The position numbers and the translations under genes were made by a program. A stretch of DNA of 15,875 bases, from assembly GCA_964534375.1 (NCBI GenBank), contig CAZHPN010000146.1, forward strand, positions 1-15,875. Reading direction: 5' to 3'. The notes under the pieces were generated by a model, which was not told where the DNA came from, did not search any database, and saw only the letters and a list, made by a program, of their open reading frames with translations. Shown piece after piece: positions 3,155-15,875 of this stretch. The DNA comes from an uncultured bacterium. GTDB lineage: Bacteria; Lernaellota; Lernaellaia; Lernaellales; Lernaellaceae. Position 1 is the stretch's first letter. Each line of letters begins with the position of its first letter.

Positions 3155-6169
<3,015 letters not shown>

Positions 6170-6804
6170 TCTTTTCTCCTTCGTGGCCATCAACCGGCCG
6201 GCTGGCGTTCCAGGTTATTTTCTGCTGCCTGATCCAGATTCGTTATTTTTCACCTTACCCGGCGATCCGCCCGTTGCGCATCCGGGTATTCCTGATTTTC
6301 AGTGTCAAAAAACCTCAAGCAGCGCCGTCCGACGCCCCCGCAACCCGAGATTGATCGGGTGCGAAGCGGCGGAGATTCGCTATTGTTCAAGACGCCTCCC
6401 ACAGGTGTCAGTTACTACATATCAAATCCCGCGGCGCCGCACAAGGCGCAAATAAAGAGTCGGGCCAGCGTCAGGAAAGTGGGCGTTCGTGAATACTGGA
6501 GGGAATTGGGGCTCGCGTGGAATACGTAGTGCAACAGGCCTTCGTTACGCCCTCGCCACGAAGTTGGAGAGGGGGTTGGGGGTGAGGACGAATTCATCGA
6601 CAGTCTCTACGCGAGGCATGCGACCTGTAGAGAATTTCGGGCGGCGCCGCCGATTCTTCATTCGCCATTCGCCATTCTACGTCGGCCGGCCCCGCGCCGA
6701 GCGAGCGGTTTGTTTGACCGTGCGGCCCGGCTTTGGTAAAAACGTCGTACGCGGTGCGGCAGCCGTTGATGCCGTCTGCCGTCAAAAGAAAAGGATGCCT
6801 CGCC

Positions 6805-8922
6805 GTGAAGCGCGTTCGTTGGTTTCTGTTCCGTTTGCCCACGATTATCTTGCTGGTCTGCGCGGTCGCCTGCAGCGGCGGCAAAAACACGACGATCAAC
6901 TACTACATCACGGACGATGACGGCTCGCCAGGCGACGATGACGGCTCGCCGGGCGACGACGACGGCTCGCCCGCCGACGACGACGGCTCGCCCGCCGACG
7001 ACGATCAGTCGCCGGGCGATGACGACGACGACGCCTCTGCGCCGCTGCATTGCAGCGCCGACGGAACCGTCTGCACCGACCCCTTCACCGGTCTGATGTG
7101 GCAGAACGGCGCGTCGGTCGGCGCCAACTATCTGGATTGGACGGCGGCGCAGAATTACTGCGCGGCCCTGACGTGGGGCGGCTACGGCGGCTGGCGCCTG
7201 CCGGGTCTCGATGAGTTGCGCAGCCTCATCCGGGGTTGCCCCGCCACGCAAACAGGCGGTTCCTGCGGGGTGACCGACGAGTGTTTGAGCTGGTCGGGTT
7301 GTGCGAATGAGACCTGCGGCGGGTGTCCTTACTTGGGCGGCCCCGGGACGGGCGGCGCCTACTGGCCGCCGGGAATGTCCGGCGCCGTCGGCGTTGTCTA
7401 TTGGTCGTCCTCAACGGTTGCCGACATCGGCAAGTACGTGTGGGAGGTCGGCTTCAACCTCGGCAATTTAAGCTACAACGCCCCCGGCTACGGCTTCTCC
7501 ACCCGCTGCGTGCGTGGGTCGCCGGACGACGACGACGACGACGCTTCGCCGGATGATGACGACGACGACGACACGTTCGCCTGCGACGTCGTTCATCCCG
7601 ATTCGACCGTCGGCCTGCTCTCCTGCCTGCCCGGCGCCGCCAACGGCTACACGCTGTTCGCGCCGTTCCTCGCGGAAACGACCTATCTCATCGACATGGT
7701 CGGGCGCGTCGTCCATACCTGGCCGAGCCAATACCTGCCCGGCGACGCCGTCTACCTGACGGAAACCGGCCAACTCTTGCGCACCGGCAACGTGCTCAAC
7801 GACAACTTTCCCGGCGGCGGGCAAGGCGGCATCGTGATGCTGCAGAATTGGGGCGGCGACGTAGCGTGGAGCTACGTTTTGTCCACCAGCGAGGTCTGCG
7901 CGCACCATGACGTGCGGATGCTGCCCAACGGCGACGTCTTGCTGATCGTGTGGGAGAAGATACCGGGGGCGGAGGCCGTGGCGGCGGGCCGCAATCCGAG
8001 CACCCTGCCCGCCGTCGGCTTGTGGGCCGATTACTATGTCGAGATCGCGCCGGTCGGGACGAACGACGCCGAAATCGTCTGGCTGTGGCGCGCCTGGGAC
8101 CACCTCATTCAAGACTACGACCCGACGCAGGCGAACTACGGCGTCGTCGCGGACCACCCGGAGTTGATCGACGTCAATTACGACGTGGTGTCGGGAACGG
8201 ACTGGATGCACACCAACAGCATCGACTACAACCCCGATTTCGATCAAATTCTCGTCAGCGTCCACGAGTTCAGCGAAGTGTGGGTGATCGACCACAGCAC
8301 GACGACGGCCGAAGCCGCGTCCCATAGCGGCGGCGCGTACGGCCGCGGCGGCGACTTGCTCTACCGCTGGGGCAATCCAACCACCTACCGTCAGACGTCA
8401 CCCGCGCAGGATTTCTACGAGCAGCACAACGCCCGCTGGGTCGCCGACGGCTTGCCGGGCGCCGGCCATATCACCGTCTTCAACAACGGCCTCGGCCGCC
8501 CGGCCGGCCAATATTCGTCGGCGGACGAATTCGCCCCGGCGGTGAATCCCGACGGCAGCTATCCGGCCGCCGATCCGGCGTACGCGCCGGCGAACCTGTT
8601 CTGGACTTTCGCCGCCACGCCCATGAACCGCATCTATTCGGCGGCCAAAGGCAGCGCCCAGCGCCTGGCCAACGGCAACACCTTGATCTGCGTCGGCGAC
8701 GCCGGCGCGATCATGGAAGTCACCCCGGCGGGGGCCGTCGTCTGGCAGTTTGTCAGCCCGGTCACCGAGGCCGGCGTCATCCCGCAGGGCACGCAAGTCC
8801 CCCTCGCCTTCGAAGGCCTGGCCAACATGACCTTCAGCGCTCACCGTTATGCGCCCGACTACCCCGGCCTCGCCGGCCAGGATTTGACGCCCGGCCCGTG
8901 TTTGGTCGAGCCCTGCGAGTGA
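6805..8922 (+). CDS. lipoprotein with DUF1566 (Lcl C-terminal) domain fused to an arylsulfotransferase (ASST-like beta-propeller) domain
   Basis: Probable GTG start at 6805 after AAGGA (ORF-track start 6733); lipobox AVAC. DUF1566 motifs TDPFTGLMWQ, WTAAQNYC, GWRLPGLDEL, YWSSS, RCVR (about 7066-7515). ASST motifs GYTLFAP, HHDVRMLPNG, DWMHTNSIDYNP, IDHSTTTAEAASHSGG, LLYRWGNP, QHNARW, SAQRLANGNTLIC. Confidence 0.85.
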   Translation: MKRVRWFLFRLPTIILLVCAVACSGGKNTTINYYITDDDGSPGDDDGSPGDDDGSPADDDGSPADDDQSPGDDDDDASAPLHCSADGTVCTDPFTGLMWQNGASVGANYLDWTAAQNYCAALTWGGYGGWRLPGLDELRSLIRGCPATQTGGSCGVTDECLSWSGCANETCGGCPYLGGPGTGGAYWPPGMSGAVGVVYWSSSTVADIGKYVWEVGFNLGNLSYNAPGYGFSTRCVRGSPDDDDDDASPDDDDDDDTFACDVVHPDSTVGLLSCLPGAANGYTLFAPFLAETTYLIDMVGRVVHTWPSQYLPGDAVYLTETGQLLRTGNVLNDNFPGGGQGGIVMLQNWGGDVAWSYVLSTSEVCAHHDVRMLPNGDVLLIVWEKIPGAEAVAAGRNPSTLPAVGLWADYYVEIAPVGTNDAEIVWLWRAWDHLIQDYDPTQANYGVVADHPELIDVNYDVVSGTDWMHTNSIDYNPDFDQILVSVHEFSEVWVIDHSTTTAEAASHSGGAYGRGGDLLYRWGNPTTYRQTSPAQDFYEQHNARWVADGLPGAGHITVFNNGLGRPAGQYSSADEFAPAVNPDGSYPAADPAYAPANLFWTFAATPMNRIYSAAKGSAQRLANGNTLICVGDAGAIMEVTPAGAVVWQFVSPVTEAGVIPQGTQVPLAFEGLANMTFSAHRYAPDYPGLAGQDLTPGPCLVEPCE
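6913..7017 (+). repeat. 21-bp coding tandem repeat x5 (DDD[G/Q]SP[G/A])
   Basis: GACGAYGACGGCTCGCCNGSC units read directly from the sequence. Confidence 0.9.
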
Positions 8923-8966: not shown

Positions 8967-9593
8967 TCAGCAATTGTTCAAGCAATTGAGCAGCGCCTGG
9001 GTTTGCGCGCTGGTCGGCGGACTCGAACACGGGTTGTCCGCGACGCACGTGGCGTTGCAATTCCAGAGCGTCGCGTTCTCGGACGCACACACGGCCTCCA
9101 GGTCCATCAGCGGGATCCAGTACGCGGTGGCCCCGGTGTTCGAGTAATTGCTGATGATGCCGCAGTAATAATAGTGGTACGCGGTTTCCTGGCAGCCCGA
9201 ACCGCCCGGGTCGCCCGGCCAGATGCAGTTGTTGAAGCAAGTTGACGAACAATTGGATTCGGTGGCGCATTTGGCGCAGCAGGCCCAGAACGGCGACAAC
9301 GAGGGGCTGCCGAGAAAGTGCTCGGAATCGACGCACCAGGCGGCCAAATCGGCCTGGTCCGCCTTGCTTCCGCTGTTTTCTTGCAGCGGCTCCCCGCACG
9401 CGGTGGCGAGCCAGCCGGCGAGAGTGGCGCAACTAGCTGCGGTGTCGTCGTTGTCGTCGTCGTCGCCGGATGGATGACCCGCCGAATCGTCGTCATCGTC
9501 GCCGTTGTTGAGGCTGTCGTTGCAAGCGAAGACGACGAAGGTCTGGAGCAGCGCCGCCGCCACGCCGAGGAACACCATCCGCCTTTTTCCCAT
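8967..9593 (-). CDS. Cys-rich lipoprotein of unknown function with poly-Asp linker
   Basis: GGAGGAGG RBS; MGKRR plus hydrophobic stretch and VFAC lipobox; Asp tracts; 17 further Cys in two similar halves. Confidence 0.8.
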   Translation of the reverse strand: MGKRRMVFLGVAAALLQTFVVFACNDSLNNGDDDDDSAGHPSGDDDDNDDTAASCATLAGWLATACGEPLQENSGSKADQADLAAWCVDSEHFLGSPSLSPFWACCAKCATESNCSSTCFNNCIWPGDPGGSGCQETAYHYYYCGIISNYSNTGATAYWIPLMDLEAVCASENATLWNCNATCVADNPCSSPPTSAQTQALLNCLNNC

Positions 9594-9629
9594 TGTCAGC
9601 CCTCCTCCGTGCGCGTTGGTTGCGCTGCT

Positions 9630-9658
9630 TGGATATCAGACTTCCGCCTGGCGGTCAA
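9630..9658 (-). promoter_or_regulatory. putative promoter for the 208-aa lipoprotein
   Basis: Minus strand TTGACC (9658-9653), 17 bp, TATCCA (9635-9630), preceded by TGn (extended -10). Confidence 0.4.
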
Positions 9659-9662
9659 GCCG

Positions 9663-9755
9663 GCGGCGGCGCGCCCGCGAAATTCCGCGCTTGACAATCA
9701 CCGCCGCGGCGGCGCGCCCGCGAAATTCCGCGCTTGACAATCACCGCCGCGGCGG
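9663..9755 (+). repeat. perfect 43-bp tandem duplication containing TTGACA
   Basis: GCGGCGGCGCGCCCGCGAAATTCCGCGCTTGACAATCACCGCC at 9663-9705 and 9706-9748, plus 7 bp of a third copy. Confidence 0.95.
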
Positions 9756-9762
9756 GCACGAT
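9734..9762 (+). promoter_or_regulatory. putative sigma70 promoter for the Tyr-rich precursor operon
   Basis: TTGACA at 9734-9739, 17 bp, CACGAT at 9757-9762 (keeps the conserved A2 and T6). Confidence 0.45.
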
Positions 9763-9933
9763 AAGTGTCAAGCAAACGGCCTACGCCATAGATTCGCCAC
9801 CCAGTTGCAGCCGTAAACGTGAAATGCGCTCCGTTCGCGCGCGCGAAAAGCAGGCGCGCGCGGAAGAGCCGAGTCACCGCCGCTCGGAAACCGCGCCGCG
9901 GTTTCCGGCAGGCGCCGCAACGGGAGGCGTCTC

Positions 9934-10383
9934 ATGTCGGAACGGATCAGGCAGAAGGGCGAGCCATCGCCGGAAAAGGTGGACCTGTCGCGCCGCAAAG
10001 CCCTAAAACAGATATTCACGTTCGGCGCCGGGGCGCTGGCCATGGTCGGCGGGGTCGTCCTCGCCGGCGGCTGCGCCGACAAGGAGTCTACGCCGGCGGC
10101 CATGGCCGGCTATTATTCCGACTACGATAATTATGCGAATTACTCCAATTACCACAATTCCGGCGGCCACTCGAACGGCGGCTACGGCAACGGCGGCGGC
10201 TACGGCAACGGCGGCTATGGCGACGGCTATGGCGACTATTGCGACGGCTACACCGACGGCTATTGTTGTTACGACAACTACAGCAACAGCTACGGCTGTT
10301 ACGGCAACTACGGCGACGGCTACGGCGACGGCTACGGCGACGGCTCCGCCGACGACACGGCACGACGCCGCCGGCCGCGATAG
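9934..10383 (+). CDS. Tat-signal lipoprotein with Tyr-x-Asp/Asn repeats; putative radical SAM-modified RiPP-like precursor
   Basis: GGAGG RBS; SRRKALK twin-arginine motif, hydrophobic h-region, AGGC lipobox (Cys47); core of residues 60-137 has 20 Tyr, 17 of them in Y-x-[DN]. Confidence 0.8.
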   Translation: MSERIRQKGEPSPEKVDLSRRKALKQIFTFGAGALAMVGGVVLAGGCADKESTPAAMAGYYSDYDNYANYSNYHNSGGHSNGGYGNGGGYGNGGYGDGYGDYCDGYTDGYCCYDNYSNSYGCYGNYGDGYGDGYGDGSADDTARRRRPR

Positions 10384-10391
10384 GGGGGGCC

Positions 10392-11138
10392 ATGAGATCG
10401 ACCGTCGCGCCGGCCCCGGCGGCCCAGAAAGCGGGCTTGGTTTCGCCTGACTCCAGCGCGGTGGGGATGGCGGGAAACGCGAAATCTTCCGTTCCTCGGC
10501 TCGGGAGGCCGCGCGGCAGGCGGCGGATGGCGGCGTGGCTCGCGCTGCTGTTGGGCGCTCTGGCGTTGCTGTCGCCGTTGGTGAAGCCCGGCCTCGCGTC
10601 GGCCGACGGTTACGCCGGTATTGATTTCGGCACGCTTTATCCGATCGGCCGGGGCGAGGTGACCTATTATCCGTTCGCCGGCCTGGATGTGGTCGTTTGC
10701 CCGGGCGTCGGCAACCAACGGGTGCTGGTCCTCGGCGCCATGTGGGGCAGCGGCGTTCTCGCGGAAAAAGCGAAGTTCCGCGATCCGAACACGCAGAATA
10801 TTTACCTGAAAAAGATCCACGGCCCGCTGCAAGAAGGACTGTTCGAGACCGGCTATGGCTATTTTTACCATTTTAGCCAGACTAGTCGCGGCTACGTTTA
10901 CGGTTTTTACCTGGGCGGGGGCGCCCGTGTCATGTACGAATACGCCGAAGCGACGGTTCCTCAGCAGCGCGGCGAGCGCCGCTTGAACCTTTCCGGCTTC
11001 GGCTTCGCGTTCGAACCCGGCCTGGGCTATCAGACGGAAGCAGGCTTCAATGTCCACCTGAGTTACTTGTTTTTCCCGACCGGCGCGAACACCGACGGGG
11101 CGATCACTTTGACCATCGGCGGCCTGTGGGGATTCTGA
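10392..11138 (+). CDS. putative small outer-membrane beta-barrel protein
   Basis: Start uncertain (ATG at 10392, 10467 or 10527); signal peptide WLALLLGALALLSPLVKPGLASA; alternating aromatic/Gly strands (GFYLGGGARVMY, GFGFAFEPGLGYQ, FNVHLSYLFF); ends ITLTIGGLWGF with a terminal Phe (beta-signal). Confidence 0.7.
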   Translation: MRSTVAPAPAAQKAGLVSPDSSAVGMAGNAKSSVPRLGRPRGRRRMAAWLALLLGALALLSPLVKPGLASADGYAGIDFGTLYPIGRGEVTYYPFAGLDVVVCPGVGNQRVLVLGAMWGSGVLAEKAKFRDPNTQNIYLKKIHGPLQEGLFETGYGYFYHFSQTSRGYVYGFYLGGGARVMYEYAEATVPQQRGERRLNLSGFGFAFEPGLGYQTEAGFNVHLSYLFFPTGANTDGAITLTIGGLWGF

Positions 11139-11147
11139 GCGGCGGGA

Positions 11148-11996
11148 ATGTTTGCCGGAAAAATCACGCGGTCCGTTTGCCGATGGCTGCTCGCCGCGTT
11201 GGCGTGCGGGCTGGCCGCCTGCGCCGGGCGCGCGGCGGTCGCCCCGAGCCCCGAGGCCGCCCCGTCGCCCGCGCCGGCATTCGAAAAGCCGCCGGCCACC
11301 CCCGCGGACCGCACGGAGCCGACGTTCTGGCTGAACCAGGGCGCGCAAACCGCCGCGACCGAGGACATGCGGCGCCTGGCCGGCGAGCTGGTGCCGCCGG
11401 GCCCGCGCGACGTGAACGGCCTCAAGTCAATCTACACCTGGATGAAGACGCATCTGCACGCGACGGCCGCCGGCGGCGCGAACATCGGGGCCGTCACCGC
11501 CGCCGACATCTACCATTCCCGCCAGGCGACCGGCTGCCATGATTGGGGCCTGCTGTTCGCCTCGTTGGCGCGCGAGGCCGGCTACCCGGTCCGGATGCTC
11601 GACACGTTTTCGGTGGACTGGCTGCGGCGCGGCGGCACGTCGCGCGTCGGGCACGTGTTCTTGGAAATCTACCTCGATCCCGTTGGCTGGAAGCTTATCG
11701 ATTCGACGCACGGTCTGTTCTTCCCCGCCTACCCCGGCGAGGCCGAATTCGTCACCGACGGCAAGATCGTATATTACGTGTGGCGCCGCGGCCTCGATTC
11801 GTGGGACATGGGGATCACCTCCAAGACGGCGTTAGACGCGCGCATGGATCACATGGCCAGGATGAATTCCTTCCCGCCGCCCGCCGAATTGGACCAGCGG
11901 TGGTTTCACGCCCGCGAACCGCTGGCCCCCGGCTTACGCCGGCGCGTCCCGGCCGCCGCGGCCGCCGCCGCGCCGTCCCCGGCCGCGAGGCCCTGA
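11148..11996 (+). CDS. transglutaminase-like (Cys-His-Asp) domain lipoprotein
   Basis: Lipobox LAAC; GCHDWGLLFASLAREAGYPVR (catalytic Cys), GHVFLEIYL (His), GWKLIDST (Asp); starts 9 bp after the barrel stop. Confidence 0.85.
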   Translation: MFAGKITRSVCRWLLAALACGLAACAGRAAVAPSPEAAPSPAPAFEKPPATPADRTEPTFWLNQGAQTAATEDMRRLAGELVPPGPRDVNGLKSIYTWMKTHLHATAAGGANIGAVTAADIYHSRQATGCHDWGLLFASLAREAGYPVRMLDTFSVDWLRRGGTSRVGHVFLEIYLDPVGWKLIDSTHGLFFPAYPGEAEFVTDGKIVYYVWRRGLDSWDMGITSKTALDARMDHMARMNSFPPPAELDQRWFHAREPLAPGLRRRVPAAAAAAAPSPAARP

Positions 11997-13091
11997 CCCG
12001 CAGGGGCCGCGCGCGCCAGACTGCGGCGGATCGAGGCACGTCTCAAAAAACAGGCGCAGTCCGTCGCACCAGTGCGTCTTGGCGAAAACGTCGCCGGATG
12101 AAAGATAGGCGTCGTTCGGACAGCCGCCGTGGCAGTAATCCCACCAGCGGCATTCGGCGCAATCGTGGCGCCGCAGGTAGTCCCCGCGCTGCCGCAGGCG
12201 CTGCTTGCCGGCCGACGCGAGCACGTGCGCGCTGTCGTCGCTGAACAAGTTGCCGCAGCGGAAGGCGTTCGAGTCGGTGAACCGGCCGCAGTTGTAAATC
12301 TCGCCGCTCGGCGCGACACCCACGTGCGTGTCCGCGCACCGCCCAGCGACGTCGCAGCACAAACTTTTGGGCGGGCCGCCGCCGCCCACGTACTGCCGCA
12401 ACGGCTCGAATTGCCCGCGCCCGCCGTCCGCCGCCGTCAGACCGTGAAGCTCCACCAGGAACCGGCCGTATTCCTCGGGCGTGATGTGCAGCGGCCCCGG
12501 CTCCTTGGCGCGCCCTTCCGAATAGAGCGGATTGATCCGAATCGACGGCCGGTCGGGCAAGTTGCGATAAAAATAATAGATCTTTTCCGCCTGAGCCAAA
12601 TGGCCGCGATGCAGCACGAGAATGACGCCGTAGCGAATCTTCCGCCGCTGCACAAAACGCAGGCCGTCCAACCAGCGGTCGTCATAGGACTCGCCGTTTC
12701 GCAGCAGCCGCACGCCGGGCGTCAGATCGTGCGAAGTGCCGATCGGCCGCCCGTGCAGCAGCTTCTCCAGCGCCGCCGCGAGCCGGTCGTCGAGCAGCGT
12801 CAGGTTGCTCTGGATCAGGTGCCCCACGCGCGAGCGGAGCGGGCCGAAAACCCGCGCCTCGAGGTCCGGCAGCATTTCGTAAAATTCGGGCCCCAACAGC
12901 AGCGGCTCGCCGCCGTGCCACGTGAAATCGACCGTGTCCTGCGGCGTCTCTTCCAGATAGCGCCGGAAAAACCGGAACAGCGCTTCGATGGTTTCCGGCG
13001 ACATGCGGCATGTTTGCTTGCCGGCGGTGAACGCCGAACAATAGCGGCAAGCGCCGTTGCACTCGTCAGTCGGCTTGACGATGACCTGCAT
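11934..13091 (-). CDS. radical SAM/SPASM domain protein (anSME-like peptide maturase family)
   Basis: True start MQVIVKPT (ATG at 13091). CNGACRYC (CxxxCxxC), FTWHGGEPLL, QSNLTLL; SPASM: CC-x5-C...GEIYNC...CAECRWWDYCHGGC-x17-C. Confidence 0.92.
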   Translation of the reverse strand: MQVIVKPTDECNGACRYCSAFTAGKQTCRMSPETIEALFRFFRRYLEETPQDTVDFTWHGGEPLLLGPEFYEMLPDLEARVFGPLRSRVGHLIQSNLTLLDDRLAAALEKLLHGRPIGTSHDLTPGVRLLRNGESYDDRWLDGLRFVQRRKIRYGVILVLHRGHLAQAEKIYYFYRNLPDRPSIRINPLYSEGRAKEPGPLHITPEEYGRFLVELHGLTAADGGRGQFEPLRQYVGGGGPPKSLCCDVAGRCADTHVGVAPSGEIYNCGRFTDSNAFRCGNLFSDDSAHVLASAGKQRLRQRGDYLRRHDCAECRWWDYCHGGCPNDAYLSSGDVFAKTHWCDGLRLFFETCLDPPQSGARGPCGSGPRGRGRRGGGRGGRDAPA

Positions 13092-13878
13092 CTTTGGCTC
13101 CGGCCTGCGCGCCGGTCCGGCGGCAGACCTCCGCGTCGAATTCGCGCATCTCCTCGCAAAACGGCGCGCCGCTCGCGCCGCCGAATTGGAAATACCCCTC
13201 GCAACAAAGAAACGCCGCGCAGACCGTGCACGGATGCCGCGCGCGAAACAAGCCGTTGACGAAGTCGCGCGGCTCGCGGTCCGGCCCGGCCGGCGCCGCA
13301 ACGCAGCGCCGCCCGTGCGTCAACTGCCCGCCGTCGTTCACGTAGCACGCCGCGTCGGGGCTCTCGTGATAGATCGTCCACAGCGTCGCGCGCCGCCGCA
13401 CGCCGTCCTGCTCCTTGATCGTCGCAAACGGCTCGATCCGCCCCGCGAGTTCGTCGTTGTACAGCTCGTAGAAATACGCCTCGCGAAAACCCTCCGCGTC
13501 GAAAGCCGCCGGATCCAGGCAATAGACGACCGCCCGCACGCCGAGCGACGCCAGCAACTTCAGGTGCGTCGCGTCCGCCCGAGTCGGGTCGACGAACAAA
13601 AGCTGCAGGCCCGTGTCTTTAATCAGGCGCAGCTGGTCCAGATAAGAATCGATCATCCCCGCGGCGTACCGAGCCGTCAGCCGGCGAAACCGCGGCGCCG
13701 TCCGCAACGCTTCCAGCGGCCCCGCCGCCGTCTCGAATTCCAGCCCGCAAACCGCCCGCGGAAACTCGACCGGCGCCTGCGCGAATTGCTTGAGGCTCGG
13801 GAACCGCACGTTCAATTCCAGCCCGGGTTCCTGCGCGAACCGGGCTAGGCCGGCAGCGGGGATGGACAGCGTTTTCAT
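13066..13878 (-). CDS. hypothetical protein with C-terminal SPASM-like Cys cluster and no radical SAM motif
   Basis: ATG at 13878 overlaps the upstream TGA (ATGA coupling); C-terminal HPCTVCAAFLCCEGYF...PFC; 3' end overlaps the next gene's start by 26 nt. Confidence 0.75.
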   Translation of the reverse strand: MKTLSIPAAGLARFAQEPGLELNVRFPSLKQFAQAPVEFPRAVCGLEFETAAGPLEALRTAPRFRRLTARYAAGMIDSYLDQLRLIKDTGLQLLFVDPTRADATHLKLLASLGVRAVVYCLDPAAFDAEGFREAYFYELYNDELAGRIEPFATIKEQDGVRRRATLWTIYHESPDAACYVNDGGQLTHGRRCVAAPAGPDREPRDFVNGLFRARHPCTVCAAFLCCEGYFQFGGASGAPFCEEMREFDAEVCRRTGAQAGAKDAGHRQAD

Positions 13879-14855
13879 GCGCGGCGCCTCGCGCGGGCGA
13901 TCGCGAAGGCCGTGCAGCCGCCGTGGCACTGGCCGCGCTTGTACTGGCGGCAACGGCCGCATTTTTCGTAGATTACCGCGGGTTCGCCGGCGAGTTCGTC
14001 GGCAATGCGCTTCTGAAAATGAGCGGTGATTTCGGGCAGCGAGCGGAATTGAAAAATGTCCGGCGCGGTGAACGCGGACAGCGGAAAACAGGGCCAGAGG
14101 TCCATGTTCGGGCCGATATCAATGATGACGTTGCAGACGAATTTCAATTGCGCGCGGCGGCGGTGCAGCGCGCCGAGCTGCTCGTCGGAAAACGCGCACA
14201 GCGGAAAACCGCAATCGAGGTCGATCCGCACGTCCTGCTCGTCGGCGGCGCGGGCGAACTCCGTCAGCCGGCGGCCGATTTCCTCATAGTCGCGCGGGTC
14301 GAGGTGCGCGTTGCGCCGGCCGACGATCGGCTGCGCGAGGCCGACGCGGATTGACTTCGCCAGGCGCCGCCGCTCGATCACGTCGAGCAGGAACGTCATC
14401 GAGAAATCGCGGCGGTAGATGTTGAAGCCGGGCATGCAAAATTCGCCGTAGGCCGCGAGAAAATCGTCGAGGCGCACCGCCTCCGCCGCGTCCCCGACCG
14501 ACGGCTCGTTGATATTGACGACGAACAGGAAGTTCTTGACGGCGCCGCGGTTGGCCGCGCGGAACAGCTCCGTCAGGTTCGCGCACTTGTCCGGCGCCAT
14601 GCTGCCGTTGGTGAACGCCCGCACCTGAAAACGCCGCAACAGCAGGTATTTGACAATCAGCGGAAAATCCGGGTGCAGCGTCGGTTCGCCGCCGAGCAGG
14701 GAAAACCGCTTGTGGCGCGACCGCGCGAAGAAGTCCGCCAGGTAGATGATGTTGTCCAGGCTCATGAAATGCTCGGCGCCGTCCGTCAGTTTCTCGCGGG
14801 CGAAGCAATACGGACAGGCGCGCGTGCATTTGTCGGTGAGCAGAACGTTGGGCAT
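13875..14855 (-). CDS. radical SAM protein with C-terminal auxiliary Cys (SPASM/twitch-like) motifs
   Basis: CTRACPYC, LLGGEPTLHP, FTNG; LDCGFPLC, CNVIIDIGPNMDLWPCFPL, CGRCRQYKRGQCHGGC; AGGA RBS. Confidence 0.92.
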   Translation of the reverse strand: MPNVLLTDKCTRACPYCFAREKLTDGAEHFMSLDNIIYLADFFARSRHKRFSLLGGEPTLHPDFPLIVKYLLLRRFQVRAFTNGSMAPDKCANLTELFRAANRGAVKNFLFVVNINEPSVGDAAEAVRLDDFLAAYGEFCMPGFNIYRRDFSMTFLLDVIERRRLAKSIRVGLAQPIVGRRNAHLDPRDYEEIGRRLTEFARAADEQDVRIDLDCGFPLCAFSDEQLGALHRRRAQLKFVCNVIIDIGPNMDLWPCFPLSAFTAPDIFQFRSLPEITAHFQKRIADELAGEPAVIYEKCGRCRQYKRGQCHGGCTAFAIARARRRA

Positions 14856-14932
14856 CGTGTTCCTGCGGTCGGGAGCTGCGCGAAATGAACCCGGCCCGAA
14901 CGTGGTCGAAAGTTCCGGATCGACGATTGTTA

Positions 14933-14967
14933 ATTTTATCTCTACGTCGCCGGTTCTTTCTTGTCAA
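14933..14967 (-). promoter_or_regulatory. putative promoter of the radical SAM operon
   Basis: Minus strand TTGACA (14967-14962); TAGAGA at 17-bp spacing and TAAAAT (14938-14933) further on; AT-rich patch. Confidence 0.35.
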
Positions 14968-15308
14968 GCGAAAACTCGCGGCGGAGTTTCGCCCGAAGCG
15001 TTCGGCGGCCGTCCCGCCCCATGATCTTCCGCCACAGGAAGGCGCTAAGAACCGCCCCATTACGCGAATGACCGCGAATCACTGGGGAGAAACGGCAAAC
15101 AACCGCAAATCGCCGCGGGCGCGATTTTTTCGCGTGCATTCGCCGCTTGCCCGACGAAGCCATGCGAAGTCGGGTGCATTCGCGTGAATTAGCGGCTCAT
15201 ATTGGCGTTATCAGAGGCCGGCGAAGCGCCGCCGGCGTCTCGCCGGCCCCGGCCGTGCCGGCCATTGCCTGGCATTATCATTGCGGCAGCCCCACGCGCC
15301 TGCCCTCG

Positions 15309-15388
15309 GCCCGGGGTCAAAAACCCCGGGCTAAGAGCATGCTGTCCCATGGGGACGCAGTGAAAACACCCCGGGTTTCACCCCGGGG
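15309..15388. repeat. REP-like palindrome cluster
   Basis: GCCCGGGGT-caaaa-ACCCCGGGC (15309-15331), GTCCC-atg-GGGAC (15344-15356), CCCCGGG-tttcac-CCCGGGG (15369-15388). Confidence 0.6.
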
Positions 15389-15444
15389 CGCGAAAACATG
15401 GGGTGTCGATTGCGCTCCACGACGACAAGGCGCCGCCTCTTTAA

Positions 15445-15875
15445 CCCGAAGTTCCCCGTCGATTTCGCGCTAGAGATTTCATAAAGAACTGTAGGAACGA
15501 GGAGTTGTCACCGTTCGTGCGGCGGCAAATGTAGCCAGAATAATATGGGACTAGCGCTTGACATGAAATTGAATATATTGAAGTTAGCGGTTATGAAAAC
15601 AAAAATCACGGCGTGTCATGTAGCCAGAGTGTCCCGCCGCCAGAACGGCAAGCTCTACACCTCGGTGTTGCTTCGACGCACCTATCGCGAGGGCGGCAAA
15701 GTCAAGCACCAAACCCTGGGCTCGCTCACCGGCCTGCCCGAGACGGCGATCGAAGCCTTGCGCCGGTCGCTCAATGGCGAGGAGCTGATCCCGGCGGATG
15801 AGGCCTTCGGCATTGAGCGTTCGACGCCGCACGGCCACGTGCGGGCGGTGCTGGGCACGATCAAACGCCTGGGGC
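15445..15875 (+). mobile_element. IS1634-family insertion sequence, left part (runs off the window)
   Basis: Transposase ORF from 15593; shift to AT-rich sequence; candidate left end CCCGAAGTTCC at 15445, uncertain because the right end is not visible. Confidence 0.7.
15593..15875 (+). CDS. IS1634-family transposase, N-terminal 94 aa (partial)
   Basis: Manual translation: MKTKITACHVARVSRRQNGKLYTSVLLRRTYREGGKVKHQTLGSLTGLPETAIEALRRSLNGEELIPADEAFGIERSTPHGHVRAVLGTIKRLG. LLRRTYREGGKVKH and PHGHVxAV are typical of IS1634 N-termini; absent from the ORF track because it has no stop in the window. Confidence 0.85.
   Translation, partial: MKTKITACHVARVSRRQNGKLYTSVLLRRTYREGGKVKHQTLGSLTGLPETAIEALRRSLNGEELIPADEAFGIERSTPHGHVRAVLGTIKRLG

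Follow-up and report, generated by a model that had tools for sequence, protein, structure and literature searches.

A Tyr-rich protein with a Tat-like signal, encoded near a radical SAM/SPASM cassette, is a candidate substrate for triceptide-type cross-linking

Introduction

Triceptides are defined (PMC11499958) by aromatic-X-X triplets (Omega1-X2-X3) and a radical SAM (rSAM)/SPASM maturase. According to PMC11002830, Y-x-D is a proven cross-link site in the Yxd system, where YxdB links Tyr C3 to the Asp C-beta, and the bond formed by OscB runs from Trp C7 or Phe C4 to the C-beta of Asn/Asp. PMC12912966 describes a Tyr C3 to Lys C-beta ring in minviopeptin and states that the 3-CyFEs and the daropeptide maturases share an origin.

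The locus described here was found in a window of 15,875 nt (the whole stretch of DNA that was analysed) and, by analogy, appears to have its nearest functional counterpart in the Yxd-type triceptide systems. As in triceptide systems, aromatic-X-X triplets are repeated in a ribosomal precursor, here the Tyr-rich protein P0001, and the gene of an rSAM/SPASM enzyme (hereafter the SPASM enzyme) is linked to it (in the window at 1.55 kb, convergent). The SPASM enzyme scored below every curated 3-CyFE cut-off and is likened to YxdB (WP_226048651.1) by described chemistry, not by sequence. Unlike the Yxd leader, which is cut before the first ring, the N-terminus of P0001 is a Tat-like signal with a lipobox; P0001 also differs from the Yxd system in having 18 sites in 149 aa, a conserved 270-aa partner protein and a second rSAM enzyme.

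The GrrA/GrrM (OscA/OscB) system shares with P0001 a Gly-rich repetitive core, aromatic-x-Asn/Asp sites and an rSAM/SPASM enzyme, but its aromatic residue is Trp/Phe whereas that of P0001 is Tyr, and the GrrM/OscB model scored 56.6 bits against a cut-off of 310; to our knowledge, no Tat signal has been described in that family. The His-Xaa-Ser system, in which the HxsA precursor is accompanied by HxsB, HxsC and HxsD, resembles the P0001 system in its three-residue grammar, its two rSAM enzymes and its extra conserved protein, and differs in the aromatic and X3 residues and in the scores obtained (HxsB 38.1 bits, cut-off 370; HxsC 18.6 bits, cut-off 267.9). Among curated families, the daropeptide maturases DynA (146.1 bits, cut-off 450) and DarE (98.7 bits, cut-off 650) gave some of the highest scores with the SPASM enzyme, but no Y-x-Y occurs in the P0001 core (count 0). 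Finally, the anaerobic sulfatase-maturating enzyme (anSME) is an rSAM/SPASM enzyme that modifies a protein in the cytoplasm prior to its export. The closest solved structure to the SPASM enzyme was an anSME (4k36, E 1.7e-18), but the anSME model TIGR03942 gave 142.6 bits against a cut-off of 349.45, the window contained no sulfatase gene and P0001 contained no C/S-x-P-x-R motif.

The Tyr-rich protein P0001

The P0001 gene (positions 9934..10383, + strand; 149 aa) was delimited from its open reading frame and translation, from its GC3 (0.82-0.84 in frame) and from like-built relatives that adjoin the same enzymes. A Shine-Dalgarno sequence (GGGAGG, 9922-9927) is located 6 nt 5' of the ATG. The core comprises residues 60-137 (78 aa; 10111..10344, + strand), in which the triplets follow one another first with period 3 and are then Gly-spaced. 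Behind it, the translation continues into a C-terminal tail, SADDTARRRRPR (10345..10380, + strand), with a basic end.

Twenty Tyr residues are present in the core: 17 begin a Y-x-[D/N] triplet, two begin Y-x-C (Y110 and Y120) and one is outside this grammar (Y60, in Y-Y-S). The sole H-x-N triplet (H79-S-N) brings the aromatic-x-Asp/Asn triplets to 18. When the core was shuffled with its composition preserved (200,000 times), a mean of 5.06 Y-x-[D/N] triplets was obtained (sd 1.69, maximum 13), and 17 were reached in 0/200,000 shuffles. Asp/Asn was found at +2 of 17/20 Tyr and at -1 of 7/20, and the remaining offsets in the range -3 to +4 gave 1-8/20; because these counts peak at +2, the rule is Y-x-[D/N] and not [D/N]-Y. 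Conversely, 18 of the 20 Asp/Asn of the core stand at +2 of Y or H, and the X2 position is filled by seven residues (S, D, A, H, G, C, T).

At the DNA level, the 12-bp unit TACGGCGACGGC is present in three exact copies at 10309..10344 (+ strand), which encode (YGDG)x3. TRF reported this array as 10308-10354 (period 12, 3.9 copies, 94% matches), together with several imperfect arrays of period 9-33. Part of the core is young tandem DNA; copying of one unit explains neither the period-3 stretch (YSDYDNYANYSNYHN) nor the seven X2 residues.

These results bear on an earlier note on the same DNA, whose triplet counts (17 Y-x-[D/N], one H-x-N, two Y-x-C, one Tyr outside) were reproduced identically and whose exact threefold 12-bp repeat is real. 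Its argument that the grammar is not simple slippage holds for the period-3 stretch and the varied X2 residues; another part of the core is recent tandem DNA. Its idea of thioether links at the Y-x-C sites is speculative. Its suggestion that the core may still be expanding fits the exact 12-bp copies and the copy-number spread, with contraction as well as expansion. At the genomic level, the enzyme that it supposed to read the triplets has a counterpart in the radical SAM/SPASM peptide-maturase-like gene that neighbours P0001.

A word-based homologue search with P0001 returned 636 candidates, none at E<=0.01. No family was assigned by Pfam and NCBIfam to P0001 or to 15 relatives, and every Atlas look-alike of P0001 was below 0.9.

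The radical SAM cassette

Three genes on the - strand form a cassette 1.55 kb downstream of P0001, with two genes between. Its first gene encodes the second rSAM enzyme (13875..14855, - strand; 326 aa), which matches PF04055 and PF13353 and carries a C-terminal Cys cluster motif. The gene of the partner protein, P0003 (13066..13878, - strand; 270 aa, start checked), shares an ATGA overlap with this upstream gene. The SPASM enzyme (11934..13091, - strand; 385 aa, start checked) has CxxxCxxC at residues 11-18 and matches PF04055 and PF13186; for queries, a version one codon longer (11934-13094) was used.

Against NCBIfam, the top matches of the SPASM enzyme were DynA and anSME (scores as above), followed by DarE, DarW, AmcB (82.6 bits, cut-off 425), XyeB (61.9, cut-off 450), YhhB (57.5, cut-off 445) and GrrM/OscB, all below their cut-offs; FxsB scored 39.4 bits (cut-off 370). 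The cut-off of no curated cyclophane-synthase family in NCBIfam was reached, and in the copies of NCBIfam and Pfam that were searched, no family was found at cut-off for the precursor, the partner or either enzyme.

P0003 belongs to no named family and is recognised by an IEPF motif and a C-terminal CxxCx5C...C pattern. In its alignment (A2), P150, C217, C220, C226 and C241 were invariant. Among clusters formed at 50% identity, 676 had a representative that matched P0003 at E<=1e-3; the number fell to 515 at <=1e-10 and to 279 at <=1e-30. In some relatives, L010 among them, the partner and the SPASM enzyme form a single fused protein. An AlphaFold2 model of P0003 had a mean pLDDT of 62.7 and, when searched with Foldseek against the PDB, gave 0 matches at E<=0.001, the best being TIM-barrel enzymes at E about 0.03-0.1; the Atlas model had a TM of 0.63 to an rSAM cluster. 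With hhalign, A2 matched only the C-terminal extension of some SPASM enzyme homologues (A1; probability 93%), and P0003 gave no match to the second rSAM enzyme (probability 0.5%). Given these results, the idea that P0003 might be a 'pseudo-rSAM' is kept as a lead only. A predicted complex of P0003 with precursor residues 10-75 scored 0.00 and counts neither way.

Related loci

Because the word search with P0001 gave no homologue, the SPASM enzyme was used as bait. Its homologues are at most 43% identical, and 25 of them were aligned with the query (alignment A1). Genome contigs were scanned with the SPASM enzyme alone, and the best 80 of 174 confirmed loci were analysed; all 80 come from MAGs, and they span many phyla (Myxococcota, Planctomycetota, Bacteroidota, Spirochaetota, Acidobacteriota, Elusimicrobiota and others). 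In these best 80 of the 174, the 270-aa partner was present in 77 loci and a second rSAM enzyme in 63.

A Tyr-density screen of the loci yielded 58 ORFs, 54 of which (in 45 loci and the window) had an RR leader, [ST]-R-R-x-[AF]-[LIM]-K; these 54 are referred to as the family ORFs. When one rule was applied throughout (RR leader followed by a hydrophobic stretch, six or more Tyr, Tyr content of 8% or higher), 64 ORFs were obtained in 54 of the best 80 loci. When both screens were joined, RR-leader Tyr-rich ORFs were present in at least 58 of these 80 (best 80 of 174), and 22 were without a Tyr-rich ORF, six of the 22 spanning less than 8 kb. The nearest relatives of the enzyme, L001 and L004, had no Tyr-rich ORF within the retrieved locus DNA.

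The family ORFs lie beside the cassette: 51/54 were within 2.5 kb of it, at a median distance of 103.5 bp. Their density was 15.3 per 100 kb within 2.5 kb and dropped to 0.45 per 100 kb over the 664 kb of flanking DNA farther out, an enrichment of 34-fold across many phyla. The cassette strand was used by 46/54 and the opposite strand by 8/54, P0001 being on the opposite strand. K/R was found among the last four residues of 22/54. In L003, L008, L010 and L012 (clade A, see below), a Y-x-D precursor occurs with the SPASM enzyme and the partner, and no second rSAM gene was seen in the retrieved DNA; the smallest gene set seen with Y-x-D precursors consists of these two, the SPASM enzyme and the partner.

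Triplet grammar across the enzyme tree

A tree of 78 SPASM enzyme rows was built with IQ-TREE (quick mode) and was divided into two clades (SH-aLRT 100 each). The window falls in clade A (22 rows), where all 11 detected precursors, with 13 to 58 Tyr each, keep Y-x-[D/N/E]. Counted as Y-x-[D/N] or Y-x-[D/N/E], the grammar covers 13/13 Tyr in L008, 14/16 in L009, 42/44 in L012, 51/57 in the core of L016, 14/17 in L010 and 28/38 in L006; in L003, with E included, it covers 16/19.

Clade B has 56 rows, of which 17 were labelled D/N, 14 S/T and 8 Y-x-Y, and 17 had no precursor class detected. Within it, 20-22 of 22-25 Tyr are in Y-x-[D/N] in L035, L050, L059, L069 and L078, Y-x-[S/T] is found at 50/54 Tyr in L062, and Y-x-Y is found in the Bacteroidota loci. 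In the sister clade, the register thus shifts to other C-beta-bearing residues. Across all D/N-class precursors, D/N/E stands at +2 of 506/668 Tyr and 14/22 Trp, and X2 is occupied by all 20 residues.

Mapped on the tree, the +2-residue labels required 25 changes against a mean of 38.9 after shuffling, and 0/200 shuffles were as low. This clustering is no proof of co-evolution, because kin share labels. The earlier note had proposed alignment of orthologous precursors, with retention of Asp/Asn at +2 despite copy-number change as the expected outcome. In clade A the expectation was borne out (11/11, with E admitted at +2); because +2 in clade B is often S/T or Y, the Asp/Asn preference is clade-specific and not universal.

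Signal peptide, lipobox and export genes

The N-terminus of P0001 (9934..10074, + strand) has the make-up of a twin-arginine (Tat)-type signal: S19-R20-R21-K-A-L-K, a hydrophobic stretch and L-A-G-G-C47. The S/T-R-R-x-F-L-K-type motif is thus represented as S-R-R-K-A-L-K followed by a hydrophobic region; R20 and R21 are invariant in 30/30 aligned precursors, and in clade A the leaders have the form RRxF[LFI]K. The model TIGR01409 (TAT_signal_seq) gave 12.7 bits for P0001, below its cut-off of 16.7, and among six relatives gave 16.1, 15.3 and 11.3 bits in three and no match in the other three. Among P0001 and 15 relatives, QcrA_N gave weak matches over the Tat region (E 0.03-0.3).

The segment MVGGVVLAGGC of P0001 fits a PROSITE-style lipobox pattern, and a lipobox-like Cys is present in 22/54 family ORFs (P0001 and 21 of the other 53). 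By eye, the family ORFs that have no such Cys look like signal-peptidase-I substrates. With a Tat-like signal and a lipobox Cys in the place of a conventional 'leader', P0001 is more likely to be exported and anchored by lipid than to be released as a small peptide by leader cleavage. The Tat-like signal and Cys47 were overlooked in the earlier note.

Export and lipidation genes also occur at related loci. TatC adjoins the system in six of the 80 loci (best 80 of 174), and none is encoded in the window; a third rSAM enzyme in L071 carries a TatB-like N-terminus as a fusion. The SPASM enzyme of L046 is part of a fusion protein that also contains a GT9 domain and Lgt (prolipoprotein diacylglyceryl transferase; PF01790, 2.5e-42); the same SPASM-GT9-Lgt arrangement occurs in L043, and an Lgt-like stretch lies close by in L049. 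GT9 is located 3' of, or fused to, the SPASM enzyme in 39/80 loci (best 80 of 174), none of them among L001-L023.

Proposed maturation pathway

On balance, P0001 is probably a substrate of a conserved rSAM maturation system, in which triceptide-type Tyr-C-beta cross-links would be followed by Tat export and lipidation. From the grammar, the gene association with its conservation and the Tat/Lgt links, all of which are observed, we infer the substrate status of P0001 and the chemistry, order of events and final location that follow. The first steps would be cytoplasmic: the SPASM enzyme, acting together with the 270-aa partner, would take H from the C-beta of the +2 Asp/Asn and would bond this C-beta to the Tyr ring, giving one three-residue cyclophane per triplet, as in triceptide chemistry. 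The second rSAM enzyme (13875-14855, - strand) may make an additional change of unspecified kind. The stiff, cross-linked chain would be exported by Tat, its signal peptide doubling as the 'leader'; the signal peptide would be cut at Cys47 and Cys47 lipidated, leaving an acidic poly-cyclophane strand tethered to the cell envelope.

In favour of this explanation count the register-specific grammar, far above chance, the clustering of family ORFs at the cassette, the +2 residue that tracks the enzyme tree, the minimal set of SPASM enzyme and partner, the matches of the SPASM enzyme to peptide cross-linkers (DynA, DarE, DarW, AmcB, XyeB, YhhB, GrrM/OscB), the chemical precedents (YxdB, OscB, minviopeptin) and the export features of precursors and relatives. 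Against it count the scores of the SPASM enzyme below every curated cyclophane-synthase cut-off, the opposite strand of P0001 (8/54 family ORFs), the gap of 1.55 kb with two genes between, the 22/80 loci (best 80 of 174) with no Tyr-rich ORF, L001 and L004 included, the Tat score below cut-off and the restriction of the lipobox to 22/54 family ORFs. One chemistry for all clades is an assumption, because S/T or Y stands at +2 in cores of the sister clade.

Alternative explanations

P0001 could instead be a substrate of the cassette that undergoes other chemistry: a daropeptide-like ether (ring-O-C-beta), Asp/Asn/Ser beta-carbon oxidation (anSME-like), epimerisation or priming for GT9 glycosylation. 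We regard this as rather unlikely, although several of the results above agree with it. The top-scoring families include DynA/DarE (ether and C-C) and anSME (C-beta oxidation), the latter also providing the closest structure; sister-clade cores are Y-x-[S/T] or Y-x-Y; and there are two rSAM enzymes, which would therefore carry out more than one reaction. The frequent GT9 neighbour (39 of the best 80 of 174 loci) would suit glycosylation, but GT9 is absent from the window and from clade A (none of L001-L023). The daropeptide aromatic-x-aromatic motif is likewise missing from the window core (0 Y-x-Y), and the direct precedent for Y-x-D is the C-C link of YxdB (PMC11002830).

Peptides containing Tyr are also the source from which rSAM/SPASM enzymes produce PQQ and mycofactocin. 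By this parallel, P0001 might be a poly-precursor that a protease, for example the product of 11148-11996, cuts into small Y-x-D/N units or a Tyr-derived cofactor. The 18 near-identical units in one chain and a Cys-protease-fold gene in the + strand trio, seen again in L004, would suit such a role; it is nevertheless improbable, since the transglutaminase-like gene is found in just 1/80 loci (best 80 of 174), no conserved cleavage residues stand between the units, which abut directly where the period is 3, and the Tat signal, the lipobox and the Lgt fusion in relatives favour an intact exported chain.

Least probable by our estimate, and very unlikely, is an unmodified low-complexity Gly/Tyr/Asp/Asn-rich lipoprotein (structural, adhesive or metal-binding) with a grammar derived from repeat expansion and with unrelated rSAM neighbours: tandem DNA arrays underlie much of the core, P0001 has no word-search homologue or family match, the layout is convergent and not operonic, and the window is full of acidic low-complexity lipoproteins, but the 34-fold enrichment of such ORFs beside the cassette in many phyla, the persistence of the grammar with 20 X2 residue types (D/N class) and different repeat units, and a +2 residue class that follows the enzyme clade all argue against it.

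Implications of the proposed triceptide-type cross-linking

If P0001 is cross-linked in the triceptide manner and exported, such cross-linking would not be limited to small secreted peptides and would extend to lipid-anchored proteins that are exported with as many as dozens of rings. A Tat signal would then be the handle of a RiPP-like pathway, and the use of Tat would be explained, because the cross-linked chain would be finished in the cytoplasm. The change of the +2 residue with the enzyme clade (D/N, S/T, Y) would offer a natural series for learning how the enzyme chooses its sites.

A more far-reaching reading is tentative. The system may represent a new class of protein-sized, exported products, made by the ribosome and modified by rSAM enzymes, with the Tat signal as recognition leader and signal peptidase as leader protease; the SPASM enzyme and a pseudo-rSAM partner might convert the Tyr-x-(D/N, S/T or Y) ladder into a rigid poly-cyclophane rod, to which relatives might add GT9 glycosylation and a dedicated Lgt, and the product might be a new cell-envelope material in at least a dozen phyla.

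We rate the site grammar and the probable chemistry as already known; apparently new are the Tat/lipoprotein coupling, the involvement of the partner protein and a product of protein size. No description of Tat-signal Tyr-rich rSAM substrates was found in the open-access literature; the supplements of a JACS 2022 triceptide paper reportedly list about 3,900 precursors, possibly including some of the P0001 type. Although many uncultured anaerobes carry the system, no curated family covers it.

Neighbouring genes on the + strand

Two co-oriented genes separate P0001 from the cassette. The first (10392..11138, + strand; GC3 0.81-0.83) begins 9 nt past the P0001 stop and encodes a protein that ends in GGLWGF; its start is uncertain (10392 or 10527, for 248 or 203 aa). 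The protein has an internal signal-peptide-like stretch, appears outer-membrane-barrel-like (by eye only) and has no Pfam or NCBIfam match; a different barrel-like ORF occupies its position in L004. The second, the third gene of the + strand trio, follows after 10 nt (11148..11996, + strand), encodes a transglutaminase-core-like (Cys-protease-fold) lipoprotein (PF01841, E 3.3e-08) and overlaps the - strand cassette convergently by 63 nt. A homologue that is 33% identical and likewise convergent on the cassette was found at one of the 80 loci (L004; best 80 of 174).

When the 80 loci (best 80 of 174) were searched with tblastn, 0 matches were obtained for P0001, the barrel-like protein, an ASST-like protein and two Cys-rich lipoproteins; the P0001 family is visible by architecture only and not by alignment score. 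Further acidic low-complexity lipoproteins are abundant in the window.

Tyr-rich precursors of the related loci

Many of the loci retrieved with the SPASM enzyme as query carried Tyr-rich precursors, which differed in architecture. The Planctomycete and delta-type precursors were made up of modules of approximately 33 aa (NCGYCDG.G.DY.HCDG.YCDY.NY.D), each containing four Cys residues, as in loci L002 (9354-9776), L006 (8461-9794), L010 (9540-9974) and L007 (8770-9939). Y-C-D was the most frequent triplet in these four proteins, and their Cys-bearing modules are relevant to the Y-C-D and Y-x-C sites of P0001, the 149-aa Tyr-rich protein of the window (9934-10383, plus strand). The S/T-class precursors, built on Y-x-[S/T] triplets, shared a conserved C-terminal motif, approximately SYYTSYRSHY(S/T)SVPPPYSSR(R/K), in L030, L032, L033, L037, L044, L055, L056 and L070; this motif was non-repetitive, whereas the cores found elsewhere were built of repeats.

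An Atlas look-alike of P0001 (score 0.82) was a Bacteroidota cluster annotated as 'Modification target Cys-rich repeat domain-containing protein'. PF27846 (tSAM_targ_Cxxx_rpt) occurred in 74% of the cluster members. The likeness of P0001 to this cluster is treated as a lead only.

Genes surrounding P0001 and the cassette

A lipoprotein combining an Lcl_C domain with an arylsulfotransferase (ASST) beta-propeller was identified with Pfam at 6733-8922 (plus strand). The proximity of a phenol-acting enzyme to the Tyr-rich P0001 is suggestive; however, no ASST-like lipoprotein was detected by tblastn in any of the best 80 of the 174 related loci. DDDGSP linkers were also present in this protein. 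On the minus strand, a 1012-aa lipoprotein (3155-6193) contained approximately 25 Cys-rich modules (C..GCCD..G.C..G......CG..G..C..C) following (DDDxSP)n acidic linkers, and a Cys-rich lipoprotein of 208 aa (8967-9593) included a poly-Asp stretch; neither matched a family in the Pfam and NCBIfam scans. A 995-aa plus-strand ORF over the 3155-6193 region was ruled out, because GC content at third codon positions (GC3) marked the minus frame as the real one.

At 14856-15875, upstream of the minus-strand rSAM cassette, the GC3 signal disappeared, and an ORF running off the window edge (15545-15874) had no match in Pfam or NCBIfam.

A barrel-like protein with a final F and a transglutaminase-core lipoprotein were encoded at 10392-11996 (plus strand), convergent on the cassette, and the transglutaminase-like gene shared its last 63 nt (11934-11996) with the 3' end of the minus-strand SPASM gene. 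The Myxococcota locus L004 carried such a pair, likewise convergent on the cassette (9096-11054, minus strand). The transglutaminase-like proteins of the window and L004 were 33% identical, and the barrel-like proteins could not be aligned. The two genes may constitute a clade-specific export or processing pair.

Enzyme fusions and Tat components in the related loci

Single ORFs in L046 (9992-12838) and L043 (about 9992-12813) joined the rSAM/SPASM enzyme, a GT9 glycosyltransferase domain and Lgt. Fusion of a peptide maturase to a lipoprotein diacylglyceryl transferase is not known to have been described. Among the best 80 of the 174 loci, the spirochaete loci L071 (11619-14045), L072, L077, L038, L065 and L074 had their own TatC adjoining the precursor. 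A 566-aa protein of L071 carried an rSAM domain, and its N-terminus was TatB-like (E 1.5e-4).
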